Shown: positions 1 to 43,844, counted from the first letter of the stretch. The stretch: 64,000 bases of DNA from Alistipes sp. (GCA_045650465.1 JAZRRF010000024.1:838-64837), one strand, 5' to 3'. The notes: generated by a model not told the origin, from the sequence alone. Numbers and translations are program-made.

Positions 1-41
1 TAACGATAACAAAGTTTAACTCCCCAACAAATAGAAAGTAT

Positions 42-485
42 ATGAAAGACACTTTAACAAACACATTGCGGTTTATAGCCGCACCCATAGTAGCAACTCT
101 TGTGAGTCTACTGCTATATTGGATATTCCAAAAAATAATGGTAATTCCATACACACTGAGTTGGTTCTGGTTGATTGGATATGGTTTATTTTTTATACCA
201 TTTGCAGAGAGAATATTTTCTCTGTTAGAGACCATCCTTATTGTTGCAAATTGGTTCATTATAAAAGGTAAAACCTGGATTGCAATACTACCCATAATAA
301 TATATGCAGCGTTTGGACTATTCCTTATATATGTTACCACTATTGGCGTGTATAACGGATACGAGCAAAATAGCATAGAATATGGAGCCAAAGAGGTCGT
401 TGCCAGTATAATAAATGTAGGTATCATAGCATCACCATTCAAATCCTTAATACTAACATCATTTATAAAGCAAGATGAAGAATAA
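42..485 (+). CDS. small polytopic membrane protein (about 4 hydrophobic helices), paralog of next gene
   Basis: ATG at 42; 147 aa made mostly of long hydrophobic stretches; N-terminus TLRFIAAPIVATLVSLL resembles TILRWIAVLPAAILGATL of the next ORF; first gene of a tightly packed 4-gene plus-strand cluster. Confidence 0.6.
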   Translation: MKDTLTNTLRFIAAPIVATLVSLLLYWIFQKIMVIPYTLSWFWLIGYGLFFIPFAERIFSLLETILIVANWFIIKGKTWIAILPIIIYAAFGLFLIYVTTIGVYNGYEQNSIEYGAKEVVASIINVGIIASPFKSLILTSFIKQDEE

Positions 486-891
486 AACTTTAATCACAAT
501 CCTGCGTTGGATAGCAGTTTTGCCGGCGGCGATTCTGGGAGCCACCCTCGCAAATATTGTCGCCATTGTATTTCAATACATTGAAAGTATTTTTATAGGA
601 ACTCCTATAAATGACGGCTGTATAAGCATTGTAGAAATTATACTTTGCGGTATTCGTAACGCGATTTTTGGAGCCGCCTTTGTAGCCGCAGGATGGTATG
701 TTGCCCCCTACCACAAGAATACTGTAAAAATTGTTTTAACAACAATATTTGTACTATTAAATATAATATTAGCAGCTATGTATATAAGCGGCTTTGCACA
801 CACTAATTGGGAAACATGGACCGGTATTATATGTTCGGTCGCAGGAAGTATTATAGTGAATGGATATCTAAATGAAGATGTAAAACAATAA
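475..891 (+). CDS. small polytopic membrane protein, paralog of previous gene
   Basis: ATG at 475 overlaps the previous stop by 11 nt; 138 aa, about 4 hydrophobic helices; similar N-terminal motif to ORF 42-485. Confidence 0.6.
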   Translation: MKNKTLITILRWIAVLPAAILGATLANIVAIVFQYIESIFIGTPINDGCISIVEIILCGIRNAIFGAAFVAAGWYVAPYHKNTVKIVLTTIFVLLNIILAAMYISGFAHTNWETWTGIICSVAGSIIVNGYLNEDVKQ

Positions 892-893
892 TC

Positions 894-1175
894 ATGAAAC
901 ACACGTTACTACTCTTCGCATTGCTTGCGATAGTGAGCTGCGGACAAACGAAAGAGAAAGAAATCTCGCAAAAGGAGACAACCACCGAACACCGCGAAAC
1001 CAAAACCAAAGCAACTCACTACGACGAAGTATATGTCTGCACCGGCAGATATGCAAAGCGGTTCCATTGTGATGAAGATTGCCGGGGCTTACAGAGCTGC
1101 CGAAGTGAGATTGTTGTAATGAGCATTGAGGAAGCCGAAGACCTCGGCCTTACCACTTGCGGATATTGTTATTAA
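894..1175 (+). CDS. lipoprotein with Cys-rich C-terminal (putative Zn-binding) domain
   Basis: Signal peptide plus lipobox (LLAIVSC|GQ). C-terminal YVCTGRYAKRFHCDEDCRGLQSC...TTCGYCY has a C..HC...C...C..C pattern. It starts 2 nt after the previous stop. Confidence 0.65.
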   Translation: MKHTLLLFALLAIVSCGQTKEKEISQKETTTEHRETKTKATHYDEVYVCTGRYAKRFHCDEDCRGLQSCRSEIVVMSIEEAEDLGLTTCGYCY

Positions 1176-1178
1176 CCT

Positions 1179-1538
1179 ATGCGTTTAGACGAATTCATAA
1201 AAGAAACCCTGTTGCAGATAGCAAAAGGAGTGCAGGAGGCTGACGAGGAATTGAAGAACACAACAGCCTCTGCAAGAGTTGTGCCAATGGGTAGTTATGA
1301 CTATCAAGGAATACCGGCTGTTACACCAAGAGTGAACACAAACATAAAATCATCTATGCCCGTTTCACTTGTTGAGTTCCGCGTAAAGGTCGAGACAACC
1401 AGCGACACAGAAGCAGCCACAAAGATAGGCGGCAACATAAAGGTCATCAGTGCAGACAAAGATGTGAGAACCAAAGACCAGGAAAGCCAAGTACACGAAA
1501 TCAGTTTTTGCGTACCCCTGGCTCTCTATCAGCGATAA
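1179..1538 (+). CDS. small soluble protein, tentatively Trypco2-like (N-terminal helix plus beta-rich C-terminus)
   Basis: 119 aa; LDEFIKETLLQIAKGVQEA helix, then VSLVEFRVKVETTSD...GGNIKVISA...VHEISFCVPL. From memory this resembles the trypsin-co-occurring domain 2 pattern; not verified by HMM. Last gene of the cassette. Confidence 0.5.
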   Translation: MRLDEFIKETLLQIAKGVQEADEELKNTTASARVVPMGSYDYQGIPAVTPRVNTNIKSSMPVSLVEFRVKVETTSDTEAATKIGGNIKVISADKDVRTKDQESQVHEISFCVPLALYQR

Positions 1539-1709
1539 AGTTGTACAGCTCACGCGCCTTGTCAAGGTTCACCCCATCAAAGCCCGTAGCCGACATCTCA
1601 ACGCACCACATACGCAACTTCTCATCGCTCATACGGCGGAGAAAGAAGAATTTAATTTTCTGCCACATAGTATTAAAATTTAGTGCAAAGATAATAACGA
1701 TTTTAGAAA

Positions 1710-1925
1710 ATGAAATACACAATCCAAGAAAGTAAAGAACCCGGTTGGTGGGTAGTAACTGACACCGAGAACCTTGTAGTCCTCAAGTTCCAGGAACACA
1801 AGTTCAATGAGACGCAGAAGGTCACAATGCTCGAAGATTGCCAACTCTCCGCATTGCAGCTCGCAAGAATAATGCGTGAGATAGGCGACTGGGTCGCGGC
1901 CCACCACATAGACAAAGCATTCTAA
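1710..1925 (+). CDS. hypothetical protein
   Basis: ATG-initiated 71-aa ORF with protein-like composition, just left of the att region; no recognisable motif. Confidence 0.4.
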   Translation: MKYTIQESKEPGWWVVTDTENLVVLKFQEHKFNETQKVTMLEDCQLSALQLARIMREIGDWVAAHHIDKAF

Positions 1926-1931
1926 AATCAG

Positions 1932-1953
1932 TTTGTTTGTTCTTTGTTTGTTC
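1932..1953 (+). repeat. tandem 11-bp repeat TTTGTTTGTTC x2 (candidate left arm-type site of attP)
   Basis: Read directly; the same TTGTTTGYTC core recurs twice at 2194-2215, on the other side of the tRNA-like core and in the same orientation. Confidence 0.6.
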
Positions 1954-2015
1954 CTAACTAATTTTAACAAATCAATCAATTAATAACCAAGCAGATAAAG
2001 CGAACAACGGTTTCT

Positions 2016-2057
2016 CTCTTAATCAATGGGTCCAGGGTTCGAGTCCCTGACGGCGTA
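2016..2057 (+). other. att core: 3' portion of a tRNA-Lys(CUU)-like sequence (anticodon loop to discriminator), with no 5' half
   Basis: CTCTTAA anticodon loop (CTT) 2016-2022, TCAAT, variable GGGTC, T-arm CAGGG-TTCGAGT-CCCTG 2033-2049, acceptor 3' strand ACGGCGT-A 2050-2057. No complementary 5' acceptor, D-arm or 5' anticodon stem lies upstream. Confidence 0.7.
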
Positions 2058-2157
2058 CGAAGAGAGAAAGCACTAAAAATCAAGCAGTTAGCATTGAAAT
2101 AAGGGGTTTTCTCTCTTTCTTTTTTATTCGCGAGACTCATGAAATGCGGAAAAAATC

Positions 2158-2194
2158 GCGAACTTTTGCGAACTTTTGCGAACTTTCGCGAACC
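2158..2194 (+). repeat. tandem 10-bp repeat GCGAACTTTT (3 full copies plus a partial one) between att core and int
   Basis: gcgaactttt gcgaactttt gcgaactttc gcgaacc read directly; one helical turn per unit; candidate Int/Xis or regulator binding array. Confidence 0.6.
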
Positions 2195-2215
2195 TTGTTT
2201 GTTCCTTGTTTGCTC
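2194..2215 (+). repeat. tandem CTTGTTTG(T/C)TC x2 (candidate right arm-type site of attP)
   Basis: Same core as the 1932-1953 repeats, same orientation, immediately upstream of the int start codon. Confidence 0.55.
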
Positions 2216-2230
2216 CAAATCACAAACATT

Positions 2231-3424
2231 ATGGTAACCACTAAAATTTATCTTGACGACAGGAAGGGTGAAAGTCCTTTTCCTCTTAAAATAAGGCTGA
2301 CATATCAGCGTCAATCGGTTTATCTATTAACGAACTTCAAGGTTGAGCCGGAACAATGGAATGGTGCTCAAGTTGTGAAGCATCCCAGAGCCGGTATGAT
2401 CAACAACCAGATTAACGCCCGTAAGGCGGAGATCGATTGCAAACTATATGAATGGAGAGCAAAAGGATTGTTGGCCGGGAAGACGGCAAAGCAAATAAAA
2501 GAGATGATTGAAGCGGAAGCCGGGGATAAGCGCGAGAATGAGGCCATAACATTCGGTTGCTACTTCAAGGAGTATGCAGCTAAGAAGAAGGGGCTGACAA
2601 AGCATACTTACGATTATACTTATAAGGTATTGTCGGACTACAAGAATATAGATGCTATCCCCTTTGAGGAAATCACACCTAAATGGTTGGAAGGCTTCGA
2701 TGGTTGGTGTACGACATCCAACAACACGAAGGGCATTCACTACAGGAATATTCGCGCAGTATTCAATGATGCCATTGACGAAGAGGTGACATCGGCCTAC
2801 CCTTTCAGGAAATTCAAGATTAAGAAAGCAGAGCCTAAGCAGAGGTCGCTAACTATAGAGGAGTTGAGGAAATTCTGGTATTGGCCGGTGGAGCCGAGCC
2901 AAGAGAAGTACCATGACATATTTAAACTTATCTTCTTGCTAAGGGGAATAAATCTCAAAGATCTGTGCTTGTTGACGAAGGAGAATGTCAAGGGCGGGAG
3001 AATTATCTATCAGCGTGCAAAGACAGGTAAACCCTACTCTATCAAGATTGAGCCGGAAATAAAGGAGTTGTTGGATAAATACAAGGGGGAAAACTACCTT
3101 ATTGATGTAATGGACCGCTACAAGAGTCATACCAATTTTAATTGGAGACTCAACAAAGAATTAAATAAAATAGGGACCGTGAAAATAGGCAAGCGAGGTA
3201 AAAAGGAAATTACTCCCCTACTGCCAGGTGTGACTCCTTATTGGGCGCGACATTCGTTTGCGACTATAGGCCACTACGACTGTGGTATCTCTATGGATAT
3301 TATCTCCGACTTGCTTGGACACTCTAACGGCATGGCTGTGACTAATATCTATATCAGGAAGAATGAGAAGGTTGCAGATGATGCAGCACGCAAGATTATC
3401 GACAAGGTTATGTATGGTAAATAA
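2231..3424 (+). CDS. int: tyrosine recombinase / phage integrase (Bacteroidota type)
   Basis: C-terminal catalytic signature WARHSFAT ... LLGHS ... TNIYIR. N-terminus MVTTKIYLDDRKG is typical of Bacteroides integrases. The ORF-track start at 2144 is rejected because that extension covers the repeat arrays. Confidence 0.85.
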   Translation: MVTTKIYLDDRKGESPFPLKIRLTYQRQSVYLLTNFKVEPEQWNGAQVVKHPRAGMINNQINARKAEIDCKLYEWRAKGLLAGKTAKQIKEMIEAEAGDKRENEAITFGCYFKEYAAKKKGLTKHTYDYTYKVLSDYKNIDAIPFEEITPKWLEGFDGWCTTSNNTKGIHYRNIRAVFNDAIDEEVTSAYPFRKFKIKKAEPKQRSLTIEELRKFWYWPVEPSQEKYHDIFKLIFLLRGINLKDLCLLTKENVKGGRIIYQRAKTGKPYSIKIEPEIKELLDKYKGENYLIDVMDRYKSHTNFNWRLNKELNKIGTVKIGKRGKKEITPLLPGVTPYWARHSFATIGHYDCGISMDIISDLLGHSNGMAVTNIYIRKNEKVADDAARKIIDKVMYGK

Positions 3425-3429
3425 AATCA

Positions 3430-3459
3430 CCCCCGGCTATCCTCACGGACGGTCGGGGG
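3430..3459. terminator. GC-rich hairpin between convergent int and late-operon ends
   Basis: CCCCCG (3430-3435) pairs with CGGGGG (3454-3459); sits between the stops at 3424 (+) and 3487 (-); weak U-tracts. Confidence 0.4.
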
Positions 3460-3486
3460 CCAAAATAATTATGACAATCAAAAGAA

Positions 3487-3945
3487 TTAAATTCCTAAAG
3501 GTGCATATCTCCTGCGCACTCTCTCCTTCGGTTTCGTGCAAGCAGTCATTGAATCTGTGATATTCTGTCGCAAGCTCTCACGCTTTGTCGCGTCCGCCCA
3601 GTCCGGTCTCACATTCATCATCCACAGCCTGCGTATCTCATACACCAGGTATTGCCTGATGCAGTTCTTCAGCAATTCAAGCAGATACTCCCGACCTTCG
3701 CGCAAAGGCGAAAGAGAAAATATCAAAGAGTCATCCTTGTATTCGCAAGTAAACTTCATCCAATTAAGATTAGCAAGTGAAAGCATATCCGTCACCGCAT
3801 CCCTCAAGTGATACATCAGCGCATCCTGTGTGTCCGCATTCGTCTCCGCAGCAGTCGCGTCGGGGTCGCCATTCTTGGCCGCCTCACCCTTGTACCAGTT
3901 CAGTATATTAATTTCCCTAAATAGGTCTTCTATATAAATAATCAT
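3487..3945 (-). CDS. hypothetical late protein
   Basis: ATG at 3945 overlaps the upstream stop (ATGA); 152 aa; last gene of the minus-strand late operon. Confidence 0.6.
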   Translation of the reverse strand: MIIYIEDLFREINILNWYKGEAAKNGDPDATAAETNADTQDALMYHLRDAVTDMLSLANLNWMKFTCEYKDDSLIFSLSPLREGREYLLELLKNCIRQYLVYEIRRLWMMNVRPDWADATKRESLRQNITDSMTACTKPKERVRRRYAPLGI

Positions 3946-4349
3946 ATCGGTTTCTCCCTCTTGTTAAGGATATTCGCAATATTAGTCAGCACCTCGCTAA
4001 ACACCGCCATATACTTCTCTCCCGAGCCATTCAACTCATACCACTTCGCGAGGATATAATTAACAATGCCGGTCTCCACCTGTTCGTTGATATCCTCCCT
4101 CATATTCGGCCAATTCTCGGGCATAGAGTATTTCATCGTGCCGGTATAATACCTACCAAAGGCTCTCTCTATTAGTTTTAAACCCTCGGTCATAAACTGC
4201 TGCAGCATATCCTTATTGTCTTCAGTTGCCACGCGCAGCGCATCTCCCCTTTGCACCGCAGCGTTAGCAGTCAGCCGATATACTTTAGTGAGGATACCTT
4301 CTTTACCGTCCTTGTCTTCTTCTTGAAGAGTAATTGCGTACTTTTTCAT
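3942..4349 (-). CDS. hypothetical late protein
   Basis: The ORF-track start at 4364 is GTG. The first ATG at 4349 (MKKYAITLQ) is preceded by a perfect TATATTTG box. Confidence 0.6.
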   Translation of the reverse strand: MKKYAITLQEEDKDGKEGILTKVYRLTANAAVQRGDALRVATEDNKDMLQQFMTEGLKLIERAFGRYYTGTMKYSMPENWPNMREDINEQVETGIVNYILAKWYELNGSGEKYMAVFSEVLTNIANILNKREKPI

Positions 4350-4353
4350 GTAG

Positions 4354-4361
4354 CAAATATA
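4354..4361 (-). promoter_or_regulatory. candidate Bacteroides -7 promoter box TATATTTG
   Basis: Exact match to TAnnTTTG on the minus strand, 4 nt upstream of the ATG at 4349. Confidence 0.3.
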
Positions 4362-4464
4362 CACATAACTGCAACTGATAATGTGCAGAATTGACCTTTT
4401 CTTTATTTATGGTAAACGTCACTTTCATGCCGCGAATATCAGCACAACAATACAAAGAACACTT

Positions 4465-4899
4465 TTATCCGTTTATCGCCTCCTTCAATTTCTTCTTGCA
4501 GCACTCACATTCGCATGTCAAAAGTTTAGTCACCGGGTGCATCATCATAGCCGTCTCCCCTGTGAGATATCCCGGCGGCTCGCCAGGCTTAAGGTTCAGG
4601 GCCTCTACGATATTATCTACAAGATGTCTCAATTCGTGCTGTATCGAGTTCTCATATTCCGCAGGCGACGAAGCCAACCCAATCACCATCACCGTCTCCC
4701 TTCTCCTGTAATTGCTGTACGTCAGTCCCTGGTTCAGTTTGTTGGCACTCATATTCTCCCACGCCTGCCTCATGAAATCCCGCGGACACTCAATGCAATA
4801 TAGCAACCACATGATTTCCTCAATGTAGTAACTATCCACCGCATAGAAGATATACACCCTCCAGTCATACCTCTCAATATACAGGCACTGCCGTATCAT
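4465..4899 (-). CDS. small protein with HExxH motif (putative zincin-like metallopeptidase)
   Basis: 144 aa; VMVIGLASSPAEYENSIQHELRHLVD contains HELRH; C-terminal CECECC cluster. Confidence 0.55.
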   Translation of the reverse strand: MIRQCLYIERYDWRVYIFYAVDSYYIEEIMWLLYCIECPRDFMRQAWENMSANKLNQGLTYSNYRRRETVMVIGLASSPAEYENSIQHELRHLVDNIVEALNLKPGEPPGYLTGETAMMMHPVTKLLTCECECCKKKLKEAING

Positions 4900-4969
4900 C
4901 TTGTAATTGATTTACATCTAACTGCGCACTCCTTTGGAGGGGAGCTGTCACAAAGTGACTGAGGGGAGG

Positions 4970-5401
4970 CTACTCATAGAACTCTTCCCAGTCAACAAAC
5001 TCGCCCTGCGCCTCCATTCTCACACACCACTCGCGGAATATAAGTCCATCGGGTGCATCCACATCGTCGCACTTGTTCTTCACATACAGCGCCAACCTCT
5101 GCTCATCCGGCACGCTCTCCCCAAGATAATCAGCACGGCACTTCTGCGCGGCATACACATAGTCATAGCCGCCCTTGTTCTCAACCTCGACACCGTGCTT
5201 CTTCAGCAGCTCGTCTACCTCTTCCTTGGTATAGACCGGCACCTTGTCAATCTTGCCGTTCTTCTCCTTGCGCATCATCTTCGCCGCGCACTCATACATC
5301 TTCTTGTTGAAGTGTCTGCCATAGAGGACAATATACTGCTGCTTCTCCTTCGGCATCAGAAGGAAATCATACACATCTATCGGCAATCTGTTCTTTTCCA
5401 T
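4970..5401 (-). CDS. hypothetical late protein
   Basis: ATG-initiated 143-aa ORF, co-directional in the late operon. Confidence 0.6.
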   Translation of the reverse strand: MEKNRLPIDVYDFLLMPKEKQQYIVLYGRHFNKKMYECAAKMMRKEKNGKIDKVPVYTKEEVDELLKKHGVEVENKGGYDYVYAAQKCRADYLGESVPDEQRLALYVKNKCDDVDAPDGLIFREWCVRMEAQGEFVDWEEFYE

Positions 5402-5409
5402 AGATCATT

Positions 5410-5442
5410 TGTAAAAGGAGGGGCAGGAACCTCCCGCCCCTC
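5410..5442 (-). terminator. internal hairpin/terminator in late operon
   Basis: Minus strand reads GAGGGGC-loop-GCCCCTC followed by CTTTTAC; between the stop at 5448 and the start at 5401. Confidence 0.4.
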
Positions 5443-5447
5443 ACGGT

Positions 5448-5726
5448 TCAACCTCTTGTGTAGCGACCCATAGAATCACGTCCACGACGCTCCATCATCT
5501 CATCCTCTCGAAAGCCCATCTGTCCGGGCATTCCCATCTGCCCTGGGAAACCCATGGGCGGATAACCACCGGGCATCATTCCACGGTTGCCATAACCGCC
5601 ATCACGAAAACCGCCACCATCACGGAAACCCATCTGCCCAATCTTCTGTTTCGCCTTCTGGATTACTTTCAATCCCTTGTGCAAACTCTCCTCGAGTTCC
5701 TCAAGATACTCCATATACTCCTCCAT
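5448..5726 (-). CDS. acidic-helix plus RG/GM-rich low-complexity protein
   Basis: 92 aa; an N-terminal EEYMEYLEELEE helix, then GFRDGGGFRDGGYGNRGMMPGGYPPMGFPGQMGMPGQMGF. Confidence 0.6.
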   Translation of the reverse strand: MEEYMEYLEELEESLHKGLKVIQKAKQKIGQMGFRDGGGFRDGGYGNRGMMPGGYPPMGFPGQMGMPGQMGFREDEMMERRGRDSMGRYTRG

Positions 5727-5737
5727 AGTCGTAAAAT

Positions 5738-6160
5738 TTAAAAGTAGTTTTTCAATTCAAGGAAATCACTTTTGTTAAACTTAATCACACTCATACCGCC
5801 CGTAAGCATATCCAGCAGGAAGTTATGCGGAAGATTCACCGTTACTTGGCCGTCACCTACTTTCACGTCCACCGGCCCCATCGGATAGTTGCACTCTTTC
5901 GTCTCAAGCATCACCGAGCAAATATCATCAATGGCCGTGTCGCTGTCAATCGCCCCCGTCTCGTCGGCAAGGAAAAGGAAAGCATTGTCAATGTAAGAGT
6001 TAATCTTCTCCTCCTCACGGGCGATAAAGTTATTCAAACCCTTCTTCATGAAGTGCCCAACAGGCTTGCCCTTGAAAAGTTCGTCAATCTTCTTCTCGCC
6101 CCAACTGCAAAGAGCCTTCTTCACAGCACCTTTAAAGGTGTTTACATCGTCAATCTTCAT
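5738..6160 (-). CDS. hypothetical late protein
   Basis: ATG-initiated 140-aa ORF; start overlaps the upstream stop (6157-6160). Confidence 0.6.
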   Translation of the reverse strand: MKIDDVNTFKGAVKKALCSWGEKKIDELFKGKPVGHFMKKGLNNFIAREEEKINSYIDNAFLFLADETGAIDSDTAIDDICSVMLETKECNYPMGPVDVKVGDGQVTVNLPHNFLLDMLTGGMSVIKFNKSDFLELKNYF

Positions 6161-7901: not shown

Positions 7902-8330
7902 TTACTTTTTCAACTTGCGATATAGAATGAACAACCCTACCGCTATAAGAACAGGAATAGCATAGAGAACTCCTGCCCCGATATCCATCTTCGTCTGCTG
8001 CCACTTTGTCAGCTTCTTCTCCACCTCAACAATGGTCTGTAATGTGTCTATGCGCTGGATGTTCAGCGTGTCAACACGCAGCGCCTCCTTGTACTCTGTG
8101 CGCCACTTGGTTATATATATAGTATCATGCGCCTCGCGCACGAATATAGAGTCAAGGACATATATGGAGTCACGCTGAATGTCCACCACGCGCTCGGTCT
8201 CAACGCGAATAGTCTCCACCGGCACATACTGCACCGTGCGGCATGAAAACAGCGCACAGCAGGCGGTGGTAATCACCGCCCAAAACAGTATGTGCGACAA
8301 TATCTCCGTTAAGCGAACCAGCGTTTTCAT
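7902..8330 (-). CDS. candidate unimolecular spanin (N-terminal lipoprotein-like signal plus C-terminal TM)
   Basis: 142 aa; hydrophobic N-terminus ending ALFSC; C-terminal TM GAGVLYAIPVLIAVGLFILY. Start overlaps the amidase stop. Architecture resembles T1 gp11-type u-spanins. Confidence 0.5.
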   Translation of the reverse strand: MKTLVRLTEILSHILFWAVITTACCALFSCRTVQYVPVETIRVETERVVDIQRDSIYVLDSIFVREAHDTIYITKWRTEYKEALRVDTLNIQRIDTLQTIVEVEKKLTKWQQTKMDIGAGVLYAIPVLIAVGLFILYRKLKK

Positions 8331-30416: not shown

Positions 30417-33400
30417 TTATTCATAACGCTTCATTATTTCTGTTGCAATATCAGTCAATCTTCTAACCTCACTCATTCTCCATTCGGGATCTTTGTTCTG
30501 CTTTATAAACTTTTTATGTGCCCCTATGGCGTTAATAACCTCCTTAAAACCTTTATCAGCATATACGCCATAATGCTCAACAGCCTTTGCTCTCTCTTCA
30601 GGTGACAACTCCTCGCCATCACGAATCTTTTCATAGTCAGACTTGAATTTATCGTGAAGCACTTTATACTCATACCACCTTTCAAGGTCCTCGAATGTCT
30701 CCAACTTTTCGTAAGTATTAACCTTTGAGTACTTGTGAAGCGCTTTTGTCGCCGCATTCTCCACAGGAGAGCCAAGCAACTCTTCAAGTTTCTCCTTTCT
30801 CAAAGACTTCGCCACATTCGTGCCGTTTCTCTCGTCCATGCCCTCAATCCATTTCTTTTTAAGGATTTCCTTTTCGGTGTCCGAAGACTGGTCATATATT
30901 ACACTTATATCCTCCGGAGAGTATTCCTTTTCGACACGCTCCTTCAAGGTCTCCACAAACTTGTTGGCATACTTGTCAACTCGCTTCTCGTCCTCGCTGC
31001 CAAGTGGGAAGTTTCTTGTCATCTTATACTCGATATACCTGTCTGCAACCTTTTTCACCTTCTCGGCATCAGCACCATATATCTCATCAAGAATAAGCAT
31101 ATCCTGCTGCGACTGCGGAGCCTCCAAAATTCTCAAACCCAGTAACACACCATCGTTAGCCAATTTAACATCGCCATCGCTGACATCAATAAACGCTGCT
31201 GCGAGATCAATCAACCTCTGCGGAGAGATACCGGTATTCATTTCGGTTAAGATTATTCCAAGCTGCAAGATACCGGCTGCCGTGCCGTCTTTTTCGAAGC
31301 TGTCAATTACTTTCTGCAAGTCTCCCTCAAATGGAGCTTCAAGCAATCCTACTGCATATTTACCATCGGTTATATGCTTCTCATAGAGACCCTTTGCAAA
31401 GTTACCAAGCGTAAAGCCCTCGAACATTCCGGTAACGCCCACCTTCTTTGCCATATCATATATCTTCTCCTTTTCTTCCTCGTCATCACCGAACAACAAG
31501 TAGGGCAGTTGTCCCATCAGTACCCACAGATAGTTCATGCCATAACCGAATATCGCCAAGTTGGTAAAATCTTTTGCGTAACTCTTGTAAAACTCCTTTG
31601 TGGCCTGTTTCCCAGCAGTCACTTCATCTACACCCATCTTGATATACTTCTGCTTGGTGGCCTCGCGTATTCTCTCGCCACGCGCAAGCTTCTTGCCTAT
31701 TCCAACCATGCTGCCTACAACTCTTCTCTGGAATGCCATCTGCGAGTTTCGGAACAAGGTTGTTAGCAAAGCTACAAGACCGCCATCCTTCTGCAGGGAA
31801 CTCAAATATGCACCCTGACCACTCTGCTGGGTCTCGTTGTAAGAGATAGCCGCGTCATTCTTCGCGCGTTTATCCGCCTCATACTCCGTCAAGCCTAAAG
31901 ATTTATAAAACCTCAGTCTCGTGTTATACACAGCTCTTGCACCGGATGCAACAACCACAGCGTCAATAAAAGCATTAGGTGTCATACCCACCATTCTTGC
32001 TGCCTTCATTATCCTGCTGTCATAGATTGAATACTCATTCTCTCCAAGTCGCTCATTACCGGCTGTGCGCCCTTTCCAACGCTCCTCAAAGCCGGGAAGG
32101 TTCTTAATTGCCCAGTTCCAAGAAGACCACCAGCCTACAGGAGTCGATGCGGTCCACATCAAGTCAAATACATTCGCGTCTCCTAAGAATGCCGGCAAAC
32201 TCGCAATCTGTTTCAAGGATGTAAATCCACCGTAAGTAATCTTCGCTGCATTTGCTCCACTCATCAGTTTGGCAAGGTAATCCGCCTTTGGCTTGTAGTT
32301 GCCTGTTGCAATTCGGGCAGTATCCACAAAGTCTTTCCAAAGAGTTTCTCCGTCACCGTAGCGCACACTCTTTGTGTTCTGCACACGATTCTTGAAATCT
32401 TTGTCGTTAATAAGAGTGTTGTTATCCCTTATAAACTCCGCGTATGCCGCCCAATGCTCCATATCCACGATATGTTCATTAAGGACATCAAAAGCATTTG
32501 CCATGAGGTCTATCGGGGTAACATTTACCCTACGCTTGATAATTGAACCGGTTATTGTAGATGGAATAGCATCCGAGGTGTTGTTTATATCCTCATTGCC
32601 TTGTCTTGCATCCTTGTTCACCCTCAATGGGAAGTAGTTCTCTACCTCGCTCATAGACGCACCGAACATTCTCTGGTGAACCTCGTTCATTCTTGGCCTC
32701 ATTTGTGGCAAGAACTCAGCTTGGATATAGTCCGCAAACTTCTTGTACTTGGCAGGGAGTTTCTTAACAGCACCCTGCACCTTCTCTTCTGTCAATCCCA
32801 TGTTACGCAATTTCATCTGTCCCTCAGCCTGTTTCTCGGTCATGTAGAGATACATCAACTGGCCTATGGTCAGCTCTCGTTCTACCGTTGCACCACCATT
32901 CCAATACGAAAGTATCACACCGCTTCCCTTTGTCGATTCGCGCGCAATAGTCTTGTAAGTCTTGCCAATTATCTTTTTATCGAATATCTTCTGCGCTGCA
33001 GCTTCAAGGATATTGAAGTCATTCTGTGACTCCTTCCACTCCTTATCTTGTGCCTCGTTGAACGCAGTCATGAAGTGATTAAACAATTCACCTCTTCCGT
33101 CAAGGTGGTCGCGGCCAAAGTATTTCATGTAATTCTCATAAGTACCCAAGCCATTCATCACAGTACGAACTATGGGGTTCTTATAGACAACCATGTCAAC
33201 AGTCTTGCCGGCAGCTCCAGGCTCTTTTCTCTCAGCACTCTTGTCAACACCATTCATATCGCTCTCTGCCATGTCATGGATTCTCTGCACACGCATAGCC
33301 TCTGCCTCGCGGAACGCCCTTGCACGCTGCACACCTTCGTAGATGTCACCGCTCAAAGCATGGAGCACTTTCTGGTATGCGTCAATCTGCTGCGCCCTCA

Positions 33401-36400
33401 ACTGTACAATCTGCGAGTTTATGGTCTTTGCAAACTCATGGTACTCTTTCCAGGTGATTTCTCCCTTCTCAGCCTTTGTACGCTTCCCGGTCAGTTCATT
33501 TTTAATTTTCGTTATATCAGCCTCAGCAGCCTTCACCTCGTTTCTGTAAGTCGCAGCCAACAGCATTGCATCAGCCTCAGCCTGTGCCTCCTTCAGTTGG
33601 TTCTCAAGAGCCGTATTGCTACCATTCTCCTCAAGCTGCTTCTGGATTTCTCCAACTCTCTTGAATGAGTCGTTGTACTTCTCCTCAAAGCCCTCGTCAT
33701 CAAGGTTGATTGCATCTTTGTAAGTATTTAGGATTCTCTTTCCGATGATATCCACACCGCCCTGAACAACAACACCACTTGCGTTGACTCTCTCCGCGCC
33801 GGTCTTCATCTGCTTTTCCATTATCTCCTCAAGCTGGCTTGTGTGCTCATTGGTGATAATCTCAGCAATCTTCACGGCTGCGCCGTTTACCGTTTTCGCA
33901 TGGCCACCGGTAGCCTTTTGCATGAGGTTCAGCAAGCGTATAATCTTATAGCTCGACATGCCGCTCATCGCATTGTTTCTAAGGTACATCTTCACAAGAT
34001 CAGTGAATATCCTTACAGTATTTCGGTCATAAACCTTCTGCGCGTTCATCAACTTTATGACATTCGCAAGGTCACGGCCATACGCTCTGATAGCAGAGAG
34101 GCGCATTTCTACATTCTCCTTCTCCTGCTCTGCATGTTTCAAGAGGCTTTCTGTAATTCGCTCCTGGAGCGTCATTGCCTGTGGGTTTGTCTGCAATCCG
34201 GCAGGCATGCTTTCGCCCGTGATAGCATCCCTCTCCGCAAACAAACTGTCGTGCATCTCCCTCTGCTCCTGTGTCTCAAGGGCAAAGCCCAAGTACCTCA
34301 AAACAGTGATAGGAAACCTCGATGTCACATTATGCAACCTACGTATAGCCTTTGCATTCTCCTTCAAAGCCTTCTTTTTCTGCTCAGGAGTGAGTTCCTT
34401 CTTTGAGAAAAGCGTCCTCTCCTCTTGCACATTCAAAGAATTATCAACCGATTTATCTCCATAAACCATTTCATCTTCATAGAGAACAGATTCGCGGCTC
34501 TCTACATCCACCATGTCAAGCAATTTAATCGTACCACCCGAATACAGTCCTATGTACGCCCCTAAATTCGACTTGGCAGCTGCACTCAGTGCCGGGAAAC
34601 GTCCAAACAGCACAGGCCTGTTTCCACCCATCACTGTTGTGTAATAAACAATCTCCTTAGCAACCTTCTTTGCGCTCGCAGCAGTTATACCAACAAACGG
34701 TGTAAAAACATTACCTACAACTCTATTTTGGTTATTGCAGACCAAAAGGCCAATCTTGTTTCTATCTCCCAAGCGATTAGAAGATATGAATGCCGCAACA
34801 TCGCTATCATTTTTTACCTGAAACAATTCTGCCGGGTTGAAATCCTTGTCGAAAACCTGCTTGTTGAACGTGAATGTCTCAACAGGTACGTCAGCCCCAC
34901 CTTCAGCCTTTGTACTCCTCTCTTCGTTTGTCTCTTTAGCAGTGTCGTATATTCCGAACTTGCCACTTTTTAGGTTTATAATAATACCTTTCTCTACAAT
35001 ATCCCCATAGATTGTTCTAAAACCTTCCAAAGCAGCCACATCTTCATTAGAAGCCCTCAAAGCACCGCTCGGATGATTATGCACCAGATATACCTTATCC
35101 GGTTTGACATTCTCCATGGCCACTGCCACTGCAGAAGCGTTAATTATCGAAGAGGTGTAATGTCCCATGCCCAAGTGCAGTACCACAGGCTTGCCGTCTT
35201 TTACAAGTACTGCAAAAGAGTTCTCAATGCTTTCATCTTCGAGGTTCTTGAAGATATACGCAACATCCTCCAAGGACTCAATCTGTTCCCCGGCTGTAAA
35301 ATCAAAAGCTTTGCTTTTTGTAAATACTCGTTGTACGAGAGACGTCTCACCCTCTTCGAGTGGACGTAGCGGTGCGTTTATTAGAGTAAGGGCATCTCCT
35401 CCTGCAAGACCATCCCGTTGTATATCACCTGTTCTGGTCCTGTTGTCAGCGGTTTGATTTCCTCCACTGGCACCCCGTTGTATGTCGGTAGTTGTTCGCT
35501 CATCAGTATCGAATAATTCAAGTTGTTCATATCTAACAATCCTGCCATCGCCTGTCGTATGCAAAGTTATATTTTTATTTTCAAAATTCCTATCATTACG
35601 ATTACCTCTTCTGAACATCGTCTGCCCCTCCATCACACTCTCCTTCATTTCCGGAGTAACATCAACAGAGTGCATCACATTGTTCTGCTCAAGAGAAGGC
35701 ATTTCAACAGTGCCGACCTTTGCACCCCACTTCTTGGTGTACTTCTGCACGAACGATGGCAGCATCTTGTCATAGAAACCCTTCATACCCTCGCCACCAA
35801 TACGCAAGCCATCACCGCTGATGGTGTCTCCCTCTTGCATTTCAAGCATTTTATTTGCAAGCGGTTTTCCTACAATATCTGCAATAGATTTTCCGATATA
35901 CTCATCTTTGGAATTGACAACTATTCCGTTCGGGTCAACTATAAATTTGTAGTCAAGCCCCATAGAGAAGCTCTTGTTTCCGTTCTTTCCAACCTTTTCG
36001 CATTCTATATGGCTAACAACTTTGGCTATATTATACCTCTCCGCCTGCTGTTCACCCGTAGTCCAAGCCACCTTGTCAAATCCCTCCTCGGCAGCAAGTC
36101 GCAGCATACGCTTCATCGCAAGCTCATACCAGTTCTTCTCAAAGGGAGCAGAGGGGATACCTCTCTCTTGTCCTCGCAGTTCTTGCAATCGTTTTTCAGC
36201 CTCATTGCGTGCCTGTCCCAACGCATCCATTGTGATTCTTTCCTCTTCGGATAGCATAGCGTCAAAGTTCTTTAGGCGTTCAAACATCGAGCCCCCAAGT
36301 TCCTTGAAGTTATACTTTTCTTTCAAAGGCTCTCGGTATGCAGTCAATTCCCTATTGGTTTTACGAACCTCTTCTTCAGCAGCAAGTACTTCTTTGGCCA

Positions 36401-39400
36401 AACCAACACCACGATATCCCTTCTCTCGGCCATCCTGGTGTCTCTTGGACTGAATCTCATCAATCACAAGCACACGATTACCCTCGCTGTCGGTAGTCTC
36501 ACCAAAGCGCACCCAAGCAACAGCACGGCCTTCGCCTGCATCACCAAAGTGAATCTCATCGCTTTGGTTGTACGGCTCAATGGTAGGCACCACAAGAGCA
36601 ATCTCACGTTTGCGTTCAAGACCTTCTGTTGTATAACTCTCTCGATGCTCATTGATAGCGTTGTCCGCAGGGTTTGCATCAACAATCTTATTATCCAATA
36701 TGAAATCCTCATATTCGCCTTCGCTTACCGTTGACTCACTCCATAGAACCTCGCCATTGTAATACTCAAAGAAATCCTCAATGCCGGGGTACTTCTCTTG
36801 CATAGCATCCCAACCAATCTCCTTTGTTTCAGCCTCAAGTTTCTTTGAAGCTTCATTCATCATACCACTGCCGAACTGAGAGTATCTCACCTCCTCAATC
36901 TTGATAGTATTCTCATTAACGAAGTCAAGCACTTCCTGTTTGGTAAGCGATTTGCTCTCGTTGTTCTCCAGCCATTCACTGAGGCCCATCCACGCCTCCT
37001 CACCGGCCTTCAAACCGCCGTTCTTCTTCAGCATAGCAAGCCACTGCTCGGGAGTAGCCTTCTCCTGCTTTATACCCTCAACAGCCCTCTGCGCATTGCT
37101 AACAAAAACTTCCTGATTGTAGTTGGCCTTGCGGAACATCGTGCTACCCAAGTCTGTACCTTCCGGCAAATCCGTTTCAACAGGAGGGTAAGTATAATCG
37201 CCGCCCACATCCTTTGTGTGCAGCTTTGCATCAGCATCAATGACACTTATGTTTCCAGCCGCGTCGCGCACAACATTTCCCTTCTGCAAATCAGCGATAA
37301 CAATCTCGCCATCAGCAAAAGCCGTGTTCGCATCATTCAGCGGCTCAAATCCAAGAGACTGCATATACTCCCTGCGCTCCTCACTTGTCAGCGGAGTACT
37401 CTCGGCAAAATCCACAATAGGCTGCTGGAGAATCCTCACGAACTCACCATCAATCTCACCATAACCCAAAATCTCATATCTTGTGTCACGGAATACATCG
37501 TTAAACAAAGCAATGTTGTCAATGTCAGGGCGGAAACGCTTGCCGAAAGGCTTGCCCTTAGATGCCTTTATAACATAACGGCCGTCTTTAGAAGAATAGA
37601 CCTTTGAGTCCTTACCCTCACCAATAGGCTCGGTATCATCAGTAAACTCCTTGAGGTCAGTATGCCAGTTACCGGTGGCTATAGCCCACCCTTTGAGGAG
37701 TTCTTTCTTTCTCTCCTCAATCTCTCTTCTTCCTGCTTCACTAAAGCGTTCATTCGCTGGGACTGCGCTCTCAGATATTCGGCTGAAAAGCGCATCGACA
37801 GCGTTCGCTCTCGCTCCTTGACGCAGCGCTCGTTCCATTCTCTGTGGAAGTCGTTGCGATATTCTCCGTCCGAAAGGGTTAGCAGGTGTAGCATCTTCAA
37901 TGAATTTATCTATCTGCGACAAAGTTACATCATTAAAATCACCTTTCAAAACAGAAGAGTATATTTCTTTCGCAAGTTCCTTTCTTTCAGCCTCTCTCTT
38001 CAGGCGTTGCTTCTTTGCATACTCTTTGTTTCCATATATGATACCGCCAACTTCATCAAGAACATTGTTTATGCGGTTCTTCTCCTGGCGTCTCTCCGAC
38101 ATCTTCTTGCTCGCCATTGTCTCACCCTGGCCGGTAACCTGTGAAACCTTTCCGTTTTCAGTTTTCACATTTCCGTTTTTCCGTAGGTTCGCATAGCTTG
38201 CCCTGATGACCGCCTCAACATCCCTCTGCTTCAAGTTCTTGAAACCAGCCTTGCGCAGCACATTCATCACATAGTCAATGAACCTCTGCCATACACTCTT
38301 CTCAAGCTCGTTCAAGTCCATCTTCTCTGCGATGTGTGCCACATACTCATCAGCCGCCTGTCGCATCTTCGCCTTTGACGGATTCGCCATGTCGGCTCCA
38401 ACATACTGTAAGAAGTGCGCTCTCAACGCTGCAGGCATCATATCCCAAACACCATCGAGGAACTTGTCAAAATCCTCTTGGCCCAATAAATGCTTGATAC
38501 CATAGTGTGACACAGCCTCATGCAGGATAGTGCTCTCCACATCGCGCATACTCTCCATATTCGGCATATACAGCGCAATCTCACCTGTGACAGGATTATA
38601 CCAACCCTTTACCTCACCACCCTCGGCAATAGCCTTCATCGCATCTTTATTCGTTACCGTTGACTCATCATTGTGCACAGTAACCTCAACGCCCAACTTC
38701 TCGGCAACCCCCTTCGCATGGTCAGCAAAACGCGCTTGTTGCTTCTTCTTTGCCGTTTCAAGAACCTTATCCGCAACCGGATGAGACGCTTTTGCCTTAC
38801 CATCCACATAAACCTGTGTGCCTATCGCATTTCCCTGCTTGTCATAACGGGTGACTGATGCCGCCTTGCCGCCTCCGTCATACTCCGTATGCTCAAACAG
38901 CACACCCTCGTCGTATGAATCAACCGACACAACCTTACCGTCGTGCTCAGTGACAACCGTTGCCACCTCACCACGCGAATTGTAGTTCGTGATACGCTTG
39001 TCGCCATTCTCAAGCACCTCCTCGGTAAATGTAGGCTCCTTAATCTCAGCCACACCGCTTTGGCCGGGAGCGTTTCCACCCTCGGCCATCACTGGTGTAA
39101 ACCAACCATCAACCTTGCTTTCAAGCGAAGTGCCCTTTACAATAGCCCTCAGTTCCTCAAGTTCATTGGGGTACAATCCACGCTCCTTGGCTTTGTAGAA
39201 TAACTCATACGCTGGGGAGATTTTGCCATATTCCTCGCGGTTACTCTTGCGCACAGCCTCCATATCCTTCAGCATCTGCGTACTATTACCCGCGCTGTTG
39301 AGTGTATAGTGGTCTACAACTTGGTCACTTGCTTGTGATATAGTTGAACCGTTCGGAATTTCCGAACCGCTTACTTGTTGATTTCCTTGTGACGTTGCAT

Positions 39401-43823: not shown

Positions 43824-43844
43824 TGCTTGCAATTTTCGTTAGAC

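Follow-up and report, generated by a model that had tools for sequence, protein, structure and literature searches.

Results

Four packed genes adjoin an attP-like region and an integrase gene

The window analyzed here, a 64,000-nucleotide stretch of Alistipes sp. DNA (GCA_045650465.1 JAZRRF010000024.1:838-64837), opens with four tightly packed open reading frames, P1 to P4, followed by small ORFs, an attP-like region, and an integrase gene:

1..485, plus strand: 3' part of P1', 161 codons of a 299-aa gene, recognized from the open frame, database homologues, and contig L018
42-485, plus strand: P1 ORF as called
475-891 (475..891), plus strand: P2, 138 aa, about four transmembrane (TM) helices, an independent accessory gene; 11-nt overlap with the P1 ORF
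894-1175 (894..1175), plus strand: P3, a lipoprotein of 93 aa whose linker varies and whose C-domain (48 aa) is conserved; 2-nt gap after P2
1179-1538 (1179..1538), plus strand: P4, a 119-aa cytoplasmic protein with a predicted amphipathic N-terminal helix and three amphipathic β-strands; 3-nt gap after P3
1501..1668, minus strand: convergent small ORF, 55 aa from ATG (73 aa with TTG at 1722), overlapping the 3' end of P4
1710..1925, plus strand: conserved 71-aa ORF between P4 and attP
1933..2219, unstranded: attP-like region with a tRNA 3'-end-like core near 2028-2060 and direct repeats
2144..3424, plus strand: tyrosine integrase (Pfam Phage_int_SAM_5 4.8e-17, phrog_1 1.3e-33)

The ORF coordinates, overlap, and gaps reproduce those of the original prediction, as does the position of the cassette beside attP/int and on the strand opposite to most large ORFs (the majority of which, in the window, are on the minus strand). 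P2, P3, and P4 are under purifying selection (pN/pS 0.14, 0.11, and 0.21) and by this measure evolve as real genes. The GC content of P1/P2 is 34–37 % (34 % for the part of P1' in the window) and that of P3/P4 45–47 %, against a window mean of 44.8 %, and this break between P2 and P3 indicates separate origins. P1' and P2 are a low-GC, lineage-specific insertion, and P3 and P4 are a semi-conserved pair.

Direct repeats of 25 nt (1933-1957 and 2195-2219) bound the attP-like region, which contains 10-nt inverted repeats as well as 3.6 copies of the 10-nt tandem repeat GCGAACTTTT (2158-2193). No complete tRNA was found in it; flanking 25-nt repeats together with a tRNA 3'-end-like fragment are what is expected of attP. 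The true start of the integrase is probably the Met at 2231 (MVTTKIYLDD), and homologues in loci L005, L017, and L022 are called at 392–394 aa. Both small ORFs have a pN/pS of 0.09. L001-L007 carry homologues of the convergent one in the same place (E 1e-14 to 5e-35), and the 71-aa ORF, which gave zero family matches, has homologues in L001-L004 (E ~1e-44).

None of the four ORFs had a significant match in Pfam, PHROGs, PADLOC, or NCBIfam scans, nor did full-length P1' and the other proteins of the slot described below in Pfam, PHROGs, or PADLOC. With PADLOC, nothing fell below E 0.01 for the four proteins or full-length P1', in agreement with the initial impression that no named system has this composition. 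Megablast of window 1-6000 against GenBank phages returned zero matches, an Rfam scan of 1-2400 nothing, and IMG/VR scans with P3, P4, and the P4 alignment no close relatives; exact-protein look-ups found neither the 147-aa "P1" nor P4 on record. A 10-mer, CACATTGCGG, had been singled out as shared with two phage promoter regions and lying 20 nt inside the first gene. It does occur three times, but at chance level and without flanking similarity among the copies (415 different 10-mers occur at least three times in the window versus ~175 in Markov-random sequence), and it lies ~480 nt inside the real gene; it is uninformative.

The first gene is truncated by the window edge, and its relationship to P2 is unproven

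The first ORF had been taken for a whole gene (42-485). We found that its frame is open to window base 3, with TITKFNSPTNRKY preceding the Met, and that its database matches are 299 aa long (P0061, 100 % identical; P0062, 90 %). Contig L018 matches window 1-1181 at 99.15 % identity (L018 2721-3901) and carries the full P1' gene at 2306-3205, and the exact 299-aa P1', P2, P3, and P4 are recorded together on one 66,512-bp NCBI contig. A query of concatenated P1 and P2 revealed the 299-aa gene and missed the P2 cluster, which the exact look-up gave. P1' consists of a 152-aa soluble N-domain, mostly upstream of the window and probably cytoplasmic, and a TM part with 4–5 helices by hydropathy within the window. 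The N-domain found nothing among PDB sequences. Kinship of this domain with the lipoproteins of the corresponding slots in L022 and L008 was rejected (E 7.9); between themselves, these lipoproteins show homology (E 5e-22). For sequence-only reading, the lesson is that a "gene" starting near a window edge may be a fragment.

P2 belongs to a cluster of nine members at ≥90 % identity and has zero family or PDB matches. L022-L026 have P2 without P1', P3, or P4, and attP/int comes next after it; in L013 a P3 gene is immediately preceded by a 39 %-identical homologue. For the 129-aa protein that accompanies P2 in L022, identity as a P1-like module was tested and ruled out. P1 and P2 had been described as clear paralogs. 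BLASTP aligns them over 19 aa at E 0.016, aligned locally they score no better than shuffled sequences (z 1.15, 134/1000), and hhalign gives a probability of 8.6 %; what they have in common is a collinear hydrophobic pattern only (global alignment z 4.6). Paralogy is thus unproven at the level of sequence comparison, and similar TM patterns should not be read as proof of it.

P3 is a lipoprotein with a conserved Cys/His-rich domain

P3 starts with MKHTLLLFALLAIVS directly before C, and its signal peptide ends in a lipobox, LAIVSC (consensus [LVI][ASTVI][GAS]C). Among 28 homologues the lipobox Cys is kept in ≥90 %, and two others have an uncleaved anchor instead. In the same alignment the C-domain conserves C49, H58, C63, C69, C89, and C92. 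The proposed Cys-rich lipoprotein tail therefore stands as a lipobox and a Cys/His-rich C-domain, except that the Cys of its "HC" (Cys59) is variable.

From this pattern the C-domain looks like a small metal-binding module. It was modeled at pLDDT 70–85; Foldseek of the model against PDB and BFVD gave nothing significant, and the P3 profile against PDB sequences gave no matches. Weak matches within the family were to NinF (6/28) and to Ada_Zn_binding (PF02805; 2/28 at E 0.025), and the BFVD fold match "Metal binding domain of Ada" had E 1.6 and probability 0.25. We rejected an Ada-type Zn-binding domain (PF02805) for lack of a significant profile or fold match. The P3 family comprises 39 clusters and is metagenome-only, with related copies in Bacteroidaceae, Paludibacteraceae, and Alistipes MAGs.

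P4 is linked transitively to the Trypco2/Pepco family

The prediction that P4 has an N-terminal helix and a β-rich C-terminus is borne out by a predicted helix and three long β-strands, in a model of poor quality (pLDDT 46). Its proposed Trypco2-like nature is upheld by transitive homology and not by a direct match to Pfam Trypco2. A profile search with P4 collected 1,087 relatives (cluster representatives) at E≤1e-3. Pfam Trypco2 was matched by 42/114 sampled relatives at E≤0.01 (best 1.5e-5), where chance would give about one match in total across all Pfam families, and it is the only family to recur. Neither P4 nor any of its 17 close family members has a Trypco2 match even at E≤10, and the nearest wider relatives of P4 reach 13–17 bits versus a Pfam Trypco2 gathering score of 24.2. 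No direct similarity was detectable to SsPepco (WP_069919158.1), the experimentally characterized member: it scores 3.1 bits against the family profile A3, where 2,000 shuffles reach up to 5.5, and the hhalign probability is 0.8 %; the P4 profile found nothing among PDB sequences.

Trypco2/Pepco proteins (PF19631) act as effectors in conflict systems of the NTPase and Avs types (Kaur et al. 2020, PMC7159879; Evans et al. 2025, bioRxiv 10.1101/2025.11.14.688446). Pepco/Trypco2 is a protease-activated β-barrel pore toxin in which an amphipathic N-terminal helix and β-strands give a 9–10-mer, SDS-resistant β-barrel pore, and canonical Pepco is prevalent in Actinobacteria and cyanobacteria (bioRxiv 10.1101/2025.11.14.688446). 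P4 resembles Pepco in length (119 versus ~117 aa) and in its predicted order of an amphipathic N-terminal helix followed by amphipathic β-strands; the hydrophobic moment (μH) of the N-terminal helix is 0.49 in P4 versus 0.42 in SsPepco, and the secondary-structure layout is similar as far as the P4 model (pLDDT 46) allows. The two differ at the C-terminus. The C-terminus of SsPepco comprises a 12-aa linker, Ile97, and a tail of 20 aa, whereas P4 ends 3–6 residues after its last β-strand and does not have the cleavable, charged, Pro-rich tail of ~20 aa that follows a conserved Ile in Pepco. Its last residues, LALYQR, lie six residues past a conserved F-x-[VI]-P motif (subfamily median tail, 9 aa). 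The short relatives in L005 (PQTNTFPKNAIL) and L027 have longer Pro- and charge-rich tails.

They differ also in their neighbors, which are Bacteroidota phage repressors for P4 and sensor-proteases in Actinobacteria and cyanobacteria for Pepco. We found no trypsin- or caspase-like protease gene adjacent to P4 in the cassette or its neighbors, nor a protease gene in the contexts L005, L019, L027, L028, L029, L032, L035-L037, and L040. Near P4-like genes, the only peptidase-type domain is S24 or S24-like and belongs to some of the repressors. We rejected this domain as the "peptidase" partner of P4: in the window family it has Ala for the catalytic Ser and falls below the Pfam cut-off, and several P4-linked HTH proteins do not have S24. 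The assignment of P4 to the Trypco2/Pepco superfamily, as a divergent branch that is linked to repressors and has no protease, appears to hold, and holds only transitively.

In a 99 %-identical contig the cassette lies directly behind a CI-type repressor gene

The context upstream of the window was taken from the proxy contig L018 (99.15 % identical), not from the window itself; no overlap was found between the 3' end of the window and the 5' end of L018. In L018, a CI-type repressor gene (1515-2309; phrog_4 E 7e-9, S24-like C-domain) overlaps the start of P1' at 2306 with its stop (ATGA), which identifies the cassette as the distal part of a lysogeny operon. The phrog_4 "transcriptional repressor" match is found in three divergent loci at E 7e-9 to 2e-10, and the layout with an upstream, co-oriented repressor is also present in L001, L005, L008, L009, L017, and L022. 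The suggestion that the cassette occupies a position typical of morons, superinfection-exclusion genes, or defence genes is therefore more strongly supported than before.

On its plus strand, window 1-2200 has no Bacteroidetes -7 motif (TAnnTTTG), but the repressor gene has one 157 nt upstream; σ70-like promoter and terminator matches were not above shuffles. Given translational coupling and no internal promoter-like motif found, the genes are most likely made in lysogens.

P4-like genes adjoin HTH repressors more widely. We found this association in at least eight independent Bacteroidota phage or phage-like contexts (L005, L019, L027, L032, L029, L036, L035/L037, and L039). About a dozen contexts were sampled, and the association fails in an alphaproteobacterial plasmid.

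The slot between repressor and attP is variable

Related phages carry one to five different small genes between the repressor gene (REP) and attP, as in the following loci (numbers are lengths in aa):

L001: REP-98-115-84-P3-P4-int
L005: REP-P4like-int
L008: REP-62-210(lipoprotein)-P3-72-int
L017: REP-P3-int
L022: REP-lipoprotein193-129-P2-int

All slot proteins other than P4 have TM segments or a lipobox. P2, P3, and P4 are each found without the others, and the sole recurring pair is P3-P4, which is present in three lineages down to ~35–39 % identity; L001 keeps it, and so does L040, at 35 % and 39 % identity and beside a 27 %-identical integrase. A sharp mosaic joint lies within P4, where 56/57 of the first nucleotides are identical to the L005 form and the DNA beyond is unrelated.

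The original prediction treated the four genes as one unit and named their failure to co-occur in other genomes as evidence against itself, and such failure is what we found: the set is present only in the window, in L018 (which covers the cassette through P3 only), and on the source contig, and the other loci differ.

Discussion

A proposed variable accessory slot in a lysogeny operon

We favor, with a probability of roughly 0.55, the reading that window 1-1538 is the distal part of the repressor operon of a ~66-kb temperate gut Bacteroidales phage, that it forms a variable accessory slot, and that protection of the lysogen is its likeliest role. Caught in its excised form, the phage would carry the repressor gene, P1' (299 aa), P2, P3, and P4, then attP and the integrase gene. 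The stretch from repressor to attP would be a recombination-prone accessory ("moron") slot holding mostly envelope proteins (multi-pass membrane, N-anchored, or lipoproteins), with or without a P4-like protein. Translational coupling would tie its genes to that of the repressor and to one another. The sequence comparisons establish the gene structure, the operon position (through L018), the variability of the slot, the family relationships, and the association of P4-like genes with repressors; expression in lysogens, any activity in exclusion or defence, and a pore formed by P4 are inferred. The likeliest role would be to protect the lysogen against other phages, by superinfection exclusion or abortive defence: P1' and P2 may be inner-membrane exclusion or abortive-infection proteins, P3 an exported lipoprotein acting at the envelope, and P4 a Pepco-like, latent, membrane-permeabilizing oligomer.

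A P4 without the canonical adjacent protease and cleavable tail requires another mode of control. A more specific proposal, which we regard as speculative and rather doubtful, is that a protease-less Pepco/Trypco2 branch was captured by temperate Bacteroidota phages and wired to their repressor operons as an abortive-infection or addiction toxin with a new trigger. The phages concerned would be integrase-type and Mu-like, including phages of Riemerella, Porphyromonas, and Bacteroides, and would sometimes carry the Zn-motif lipoprotein as well. Lost expression of the repressor operon, a protease of an incoming phage, or a lipoprotein partner might then replace the sensor-protease as the trigger.

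Alternative explanations

The close association of P4-like genes with repressors can also be read as serving the phage's own life cycle, as an addiction pair or a lysis-lysogeny factor, with the other three genes as unrelated morons; in the addiction form, the HTH protein would be the regulator or antitoxin and P4 a membrane toxin punishing prophage loss. The HTH gene directly adjoins the P4-like gene, often with gaps of 1–30 nt, across several HTH families (CI+S24, Phage_CI_repr, XRE/HTH_3, and short HTH). The phages with this adjacency are integrase-type and Mu-like, a chromosomal HigB-like/HTH/P4-like trio shows it once, and an HTH protein first with a small protein second is the order typical of type II toxin-antitoxin operons. 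However, three or four unrelated genes separate repressor and P4 in the window and L001, the order is reversed in Riemerella phages, the upstream partner of P4 in L040 is P3 rather than an HTH protein, and the HTH partners are not one co-evolving family. We consider this explanation possible and on balance unlikely. The envelope proteins of the slot could equally serve host fitness or surface change, and the whole cassette can be read as a set of lysogenic-conversion or host-fitness factors that alter surface, transport, or stress properties of the Bacteroidales host in the gut without any phage-phage conflict. Membrane proteins or lipoproteins everywhere but at P4, zero matches to defence models, and strain-to-strain variation like that of lysogenic-conversion genes all fit. 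We judge it improbable nonetheless, as the family to which P4 is related has been described from conflict systems only, signatures of enzymes or transporters are absent from these very small proteins, and exclusion genes such as lambda rexAB classically occupy the spot just behind the repressor gene.

The dedicated four-component system first envisaged, in which two paralogous 4-TM proteins, a lipoprotein, and a Trypco2-like protein act together, draws on the tight ORF packing, on the same order in L018 through P3, and on the exact proteins lying together on the 66.5-kb source contig. It is, on sequence comparison, already largely refuted by the absent co-occurrence: the combination is confined to near-identical genomes, P2 occurs without P1', P3, and P4 in L022-26, P3 alone in L017, a P4-like gene alone in L005, L019, L027, L032, and L036, and P3 with P4 beside other partners in L001. 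P1 is moreover a fragment of a 299-aa gene, the paralogy is unsupported, and GC content breaks between P2 and P3, so we hold this system to be very improbable. Kinship to Trypco2/Pepco without a protease partner or cleavable tail would also suit an anti-defence decoy, a phage copy of a host Pepco effector that poisons host barrels by co-assembling with them or soaks up the host protease, and phages do capture and disable immune components. But placing an anti-defence gene in the lysogeny operon, and not with the early lytic genes, would be odd timing, no protease-Pepco system was found among the sampled Bacteroidales contexts, and canonical Pepco is described as prevalent in Actinobacteria and cyanobacteria; we give the decoy very little credence. 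Least credible to us is a lysis cassette of holin-like membrane proteins and a spanin-like lipoprotein. The sequence of small multi-TM proteins and then a small lipoprotein is suggestive, and the lipoprotein of the neighboring slot in L008 has a weak "Rz-like spanin" PHROG match (E 0.02), yet there is no endolysin in or beside the cassette, which shares the strand of the lysogeny genes, is coupled to the repressor gene, and adjoins int. Its content also differs between near-identical phages, and such variation would be lethal for an essential lysis module.

If the accessory-slot reading is correct, gut Bacteroidales phages keep accessory genes, probably for exclusion or defence, between a CI-type repressor gene and attP, and a simple rule follows for finding more of them in metagenomes. 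Pepco/Trypco2, recently shown to form protease-gated pores, would extend to a phage-borne, repressor-linked, protease-less branch, raising the question of what silences and what fires a pore-former of this kind.

Comparison with known systems

Several known arrangements share features with the cassette. Type II toxin-antitoxin operons with an HTH antitoxin (XRE/HigA-type) resemble the many contexts in which a small P4-like gene comes shortly after an HTH gene, one of them including a Gp49/HigB-like gene; they differ from it in that the partners of P4-like genes belong to several HTH families, full-length CI repressors among them, and in the reversed order of the Riemerella phages and the intervening genes of the window. 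Temperate mycobacteriophages carry prophage-mediated defence genes beside their immunity cassettes. These and moron loci in general share with our locus highly variable small genes between repressor and integrase, swapped by recombination among related phages, but the host phylum and the gene families are different.

The small phage lipoproteins Llp of T5 and Cor of phi80/N15 block the phage's own outer-membrane receptor. P3, too, is a small lipoprotein encoded by a phage; it has conserved cysteines and is probably produced in cells that are infected or lysogenic. It has no detectable homology to them, and its C-domain differs in a His/Cys pattern that resembles a metal-binding site.

In lambda cI-rexA-rexB, exclusion genes are co-transcribed with the prophage repressor, and RexB has 144 aa and 4 TM segments. 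No homology to RexA/RexB or to any catalogued exclusion or defence protein was found for the cassette by PADLOC, PHROGs, or Pfam; PADLOC, run on all genes, gave no sequence relationship to rexAB. The composition of the cassette is also variable and includes a lipoprotein and a Trypco2-like protein. The likeness lies in accessory genes that come immediately after the repressor gene, on the lysogeny strand, in an inner-membrane protein of ~140 aa with four TM segments (P2, 138 aa) beside a larger partner, and in genes that are dispensable and vary between phages.

Gene layout and the repressor operon

Four plus-strand ORFs lead up to an attP-like region and an integrase gene.

Features of the region (window coordinates)
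42-485 (+): P1 ORF, as placed in the original prediction
475-891 (+): P2 ORF, 11-nt overlap with 42-485
894-1175 (+): P3 ORF, 2-nt gap after P2
1179-1538 (+): P4 ORF, 3-nt gap after P3
1933-2219: attP-like region between P4 and int, with a tRNA 3'-end-like fragment and repeats
2144-3424 (+): tyrosine integrase (int), 3' of P4 and the attP-like region

We recovered the predicted coordinates, overlap and gaps exactly, along with the placement of the array opposite most large ORFs: the minus strand carries the majority of the window's large ORFs. Gene 1, described as a complete ORF, is truncated at the window edge. Its frame is open up to base 3, the 13 codons preceding the supposed Met encode TITKFNSPTNRKY, and it is related in the databases solely to 299-aa proteins (P0061, 100 % identical; P0062, 90 %) in which the TITKFNSPTNRKY peptide and 139 further residues lie N-terminal of that position. 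As described, 42-485 is a window-edge artefact.

The exact 299-aa protein (P1') is recorded with the exact P2, P3, and P4 on one 66,512-bp NCBI contig, evidently the one from which the window derives, and the missing upstream DNA is provided by L018, a near-identical proxy contig (99.15 % identical to window 1-1181). In L018, the start of the 299-aa gene (2306-3205) overlaps, as ATGA, the stop of a gene for a 264-aa protein. This protein, like homologues in six further loci, combines an HTH N-domain with a Zn-ribbon-like insert and an S24-like C-domain; they match phrog_4 'transcriptional repressor' (E 7e-9 to 2e-10). Because P1' overlaps this repressor-type gene, we assign the cassette to the distal part of a CI-type repressor operon. 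The plus strand of window 1-2200 contains no Bacteroidetes -7 motif, and one sits 157 nt 5' of the repressor gene; matches to σ70-type promoters and to terminators did not exceed shuffle level.

LexA and CI carry G-D-S-M-x-P at the catalytic Ser site. The CI-type repressors aligned here (L018 1515-2309 and homologues, alignment A7) read TRAMEP at this site and have an invariant Arg at the expected catalytic Lys position; the variants of L001 and L008 read DESLAP at the Ser site. Replacement of the catalytic Ser by Ala and of Lys by Arg suggests that repressors of this phage group lack self-cleavage and would therefore respond to a non-SOS induction route. Just 5' of the repressor gene, on the lysogeny strand, several related phages encode a conserved 65-73-aa protein with a Zn-finger-like CPVCGKCH motif (L018 994-1191; L001 5389-5610; L005 6508-6708).

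Between P4 and int (1933-2219), we found a tRNA 3'-end-like fragment, and no complete tRNA, with a 25-nt direct repeat on either side (two copies, 88 % identical, 262 nt apart). A triple set of 10-nt inverted repeats, TTTCTCTCTT/AAGAGAGAAA, surrounds this tRNA-like core, and GCGAACTTTT is repeated 3.6 times in tandem immediately 5' of position 2231, where the integrase probably starts. These repeats are candidate arm-type and regulatory sites. The arrangement is attP-like, so the captured phage was in its excised form.

Comparison with related loci puts P2, P3, and P4 under purifying selection (pN/pS 0.11-0.21). Two small ORFs, each with pN/pS 0.09 and no family match, lie between P4 and attP: a convergent 55-aa ORF (1501-1668, minus) overlapping its final 38 nt and a 71-aa ORF (1710-1925, plus) before attP. 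They are conserved in L001-L007 or L001-L004, and small convergent ORFs also adjoin P4-like genes in L020/21, L027, and L032-34.

Elsewhere in the window, a giant ORF (30417-43832, minus) encodes 4,471 aa. L005 has a >2,492-aa protein at this position, and L008 a 5,292-aa protein with precomputed Pfam matches to Kinase-PolyVal, InPase, Eco57I, SNF2/ResIII helicase, and LPD38; this L008 protein is a 'polyvalent protein' of the type found in phages and conjugative elements. A 27-nt tandem repeat (57086-57662; 21.4 copies, 91 % match) lies within ORF 56882-57997 (minus), giving its 371-aa protein a 9-aa repeat, and recurs in L005 at 95 % identity.

The membrane proteins and the lipoprotein

P1 and P2 had been called clear paralogs, a relation that our comparisons do not bear out: BLASTP gave E 0.016 across 19 aa, the local alignment was not above shuffles (z 1.15), hhalign probability was 8.6 %, and only a collinear hydrophobic pattern stood out in the global alignment (z 4.6). 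What the comparisons show is a pair of membrane proteins built alike, and no more. The shared 10-mer, CACATTGCGG, does occur three times in the window but is uninformative; 415 different 10-mers are present at least three times, versus about 175 in Markov-random sequence, and the sequences flanking its three copies are dissimilar. Its recurrence is chance.

P3 is a lipoprotein, as predicted (lipobox LAIVS|C). In its conserved 48-aa C-domain, C49, H58, C63, C69, C89, and C92 are invariant or near-invariant; no fold or family was assignable, with scattered sub-threshold matches to NinF and Ada_Zn_binding and, in BFVD, an 'Ada metal-binding' entry matched at E 1.6. In a related phage from a Paludibacteraceae MAG (L010), a P3 homologue (7986-8255) is located elsewhere in the genome: the regions on its two sides are homologous to window ~29.9 kb and ~16.3 kb, and neither a repressor nor an integrase match lies nearby. 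This placement fits a view of P3 as an autonomous mobile moron.

A variable slot between repressor and integrase

We mapped gene orders by local HMM and BLAST over loci brought in by homologues, which derive from gut MAGs assigned to Bacteroidaceae, Paludibacteraceae, and Alistipes.

Gene orders in the slot (REP, repressor; bare numbers, proteins by aa length)
Window/L018: REP-P1'-P2-P3-P4-attP-int
L001-4: REP-98-115-84-P3-P4-int; P4 96 % identical, different integrase type
L005-7: REP-P4like(93 aa)-int
L008: REP-62-210(lipoprotein)-P3like-72-int
L017: REP-P3-int
L022-26: REP-lipoprotein193-129-P2-int; P2 96 % identical, no P3 or P4
L013: P2like-P3
L040: P3like(35 %)-P4like(39 %)-int(27 %)

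TM segments or a lipobox occur in every slot protein apart from P4. P1' and P2 have a GC content of 34-37 %, and P3 and P4 one of 45-47 %, compared with 44.8 % over the full window. Similarity to L001 begins mid-P3 and stops just before attP. The first 57 nt of P4 (19 codons; 1179-1235) match L005 7844-7900 at 56 of 57 positions, after which the DNA of the 93-aa form is unrelated; the upstream genes also differ. This break is a sharp mosaic joint, and the shared gene start would be a linker for recombination or else a conserved nucleic-acid element. Given the varying gene sets, the GC break, and the mosaic joint, we conclude that the region is a recombination-driven accessory slot.

P4 and the Trypco2 superfamily

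The definition of Trypco2 is that of a small protein whose gene occurs beside genes for trypsin-like peptidases in conflict systems (PMC7159879). More recent work on it, under the name Pepco, showed a pre-assembled 9-10-mer β-barrel that becomes toxic once the adjacent protease removes a 20-aa tail after Ile97, and its amphipathic N-terminal helix is essential for toxicity (bioRxiv 10.1101/2025.11.14.688446); we took the sequence of SsPepco, an experimentally characterised member, from the supplement of that study.

The Trypco2-like assignment of P4 holds at the superfamily level; neither P4 nor its 16 close relatives match the Pfam family. An exhaustive HMMER search with a P4-family profile retrieved 1,087 cluster representatives (E<=1e-3), nearly all full-length at 105-140 aa. 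PF19631 (Trypco2) was matched by 42 of 114 sampled relatives at E<=0.01 (best 1.5e-5), with no second recurring family among the 114; the nearest relatives reach only 13-17 bits, in register along the β-rich half. SsPepco scored just 3 bits against the profile (shuffles reach 5.5), with hhalign probability 0.8 %. P4 resembles Pepco in size, amphipathic moments, and predicted layout (helix 3-26; strands 62-74, 79-90, and 105-116; model pLDDT only 46), and differs in having no adjoining protease gene in any sampled context. Its C-terminus lies six residues past a conserved F-x-[VI]-P motif (subfamily median nine). Relatives linked by profile, combined with no SsPepco similarity above shuffles, no protease, and a short end, lead us to describe P4 as best placed in a divergent sister branch of Trypco2, not as a demonstrated Pepco.

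Among 50,697 GenBank phage records, detectable P4-family members occur only in Bacteroidota phages.

HTH regulators beside P4-like genes (sampled contexts)
L005: CI+S24-like repressor immediately upstream
L019-21: Phage_CI_repr protein, 97 aa
Porphyromonas phages 006a and 010a (Mu-like): 'repressor', S24 E 1.5e-12
L032-34: Phage_CI_repr protein, 156 aa
L029-31 (chromosomal): Gp49/HigB-like, HTH_3, then P4-like
Bacteroides phage BS-TP2: HTH regulator, then P4-like
Four Riemerella phages: P4-like first in the lysogeny operon, then 254-aa HTH regulator

The exceptions are one contig cut upstream, an alphaproteobacterial plasmid with a small membrane protein upstream, and L040, with P3 upstream. 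Across the sampled contexts, this protease-less branch is linked time after time to repressor operons in temperate phages of Bacteroidota; the literature library searched gave no paper tying Pepco or Trypco2 to prophages. In cultured BS-TP2 (PQ571275.1), the 129-aa Trypco2-like protein (L036 3501-3890) is annotated 'Alpha-D-ribose 1-methylphosphonate 5-triphosphate diphosphatase PhnM', almost certainly a misannotation.

Discussion

The DNA and genes are real and the position is interesting; what does not survive of the four-gene cassette is a complete gene 1, proven paralogy, a meaningful 10-mer, and a single system. A single four-gene system is disfavoured: P3-P4 is the only combination recurring across deep divergence (three lineages), and the four genes are not one unit. 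A lysis cassette is likewise disfavoured. In the strongest competing reading, P4-like proteins would work within the repressor circuit of the phage itself, forming a toxin-antitoxin-like addiction pair or acting as an accessory of the switch. P1', P2, and P3 may instead provide lysogenic conversion unrelated to phages.

The best-supported reading is that of a modular accessory array, probably expressed in lysogens, whose products would act at the cell envelope. P4 would then work as a membrane-active oligomer akin to Pepco, controlled in a non-canonical way; we infer lysogen expression, exclusion or defence activity, and pore formation alike. The P4 branch would gain significance should P4 turn out to form pores in response to a new kind of trigger. 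Among known systems, P3 is analogous, not homologous, to the receptor-blocking lipoproteins T5 Llp and Cor, and the closest functional analogue of the cassette would be lambda cI-rexA-rexB.
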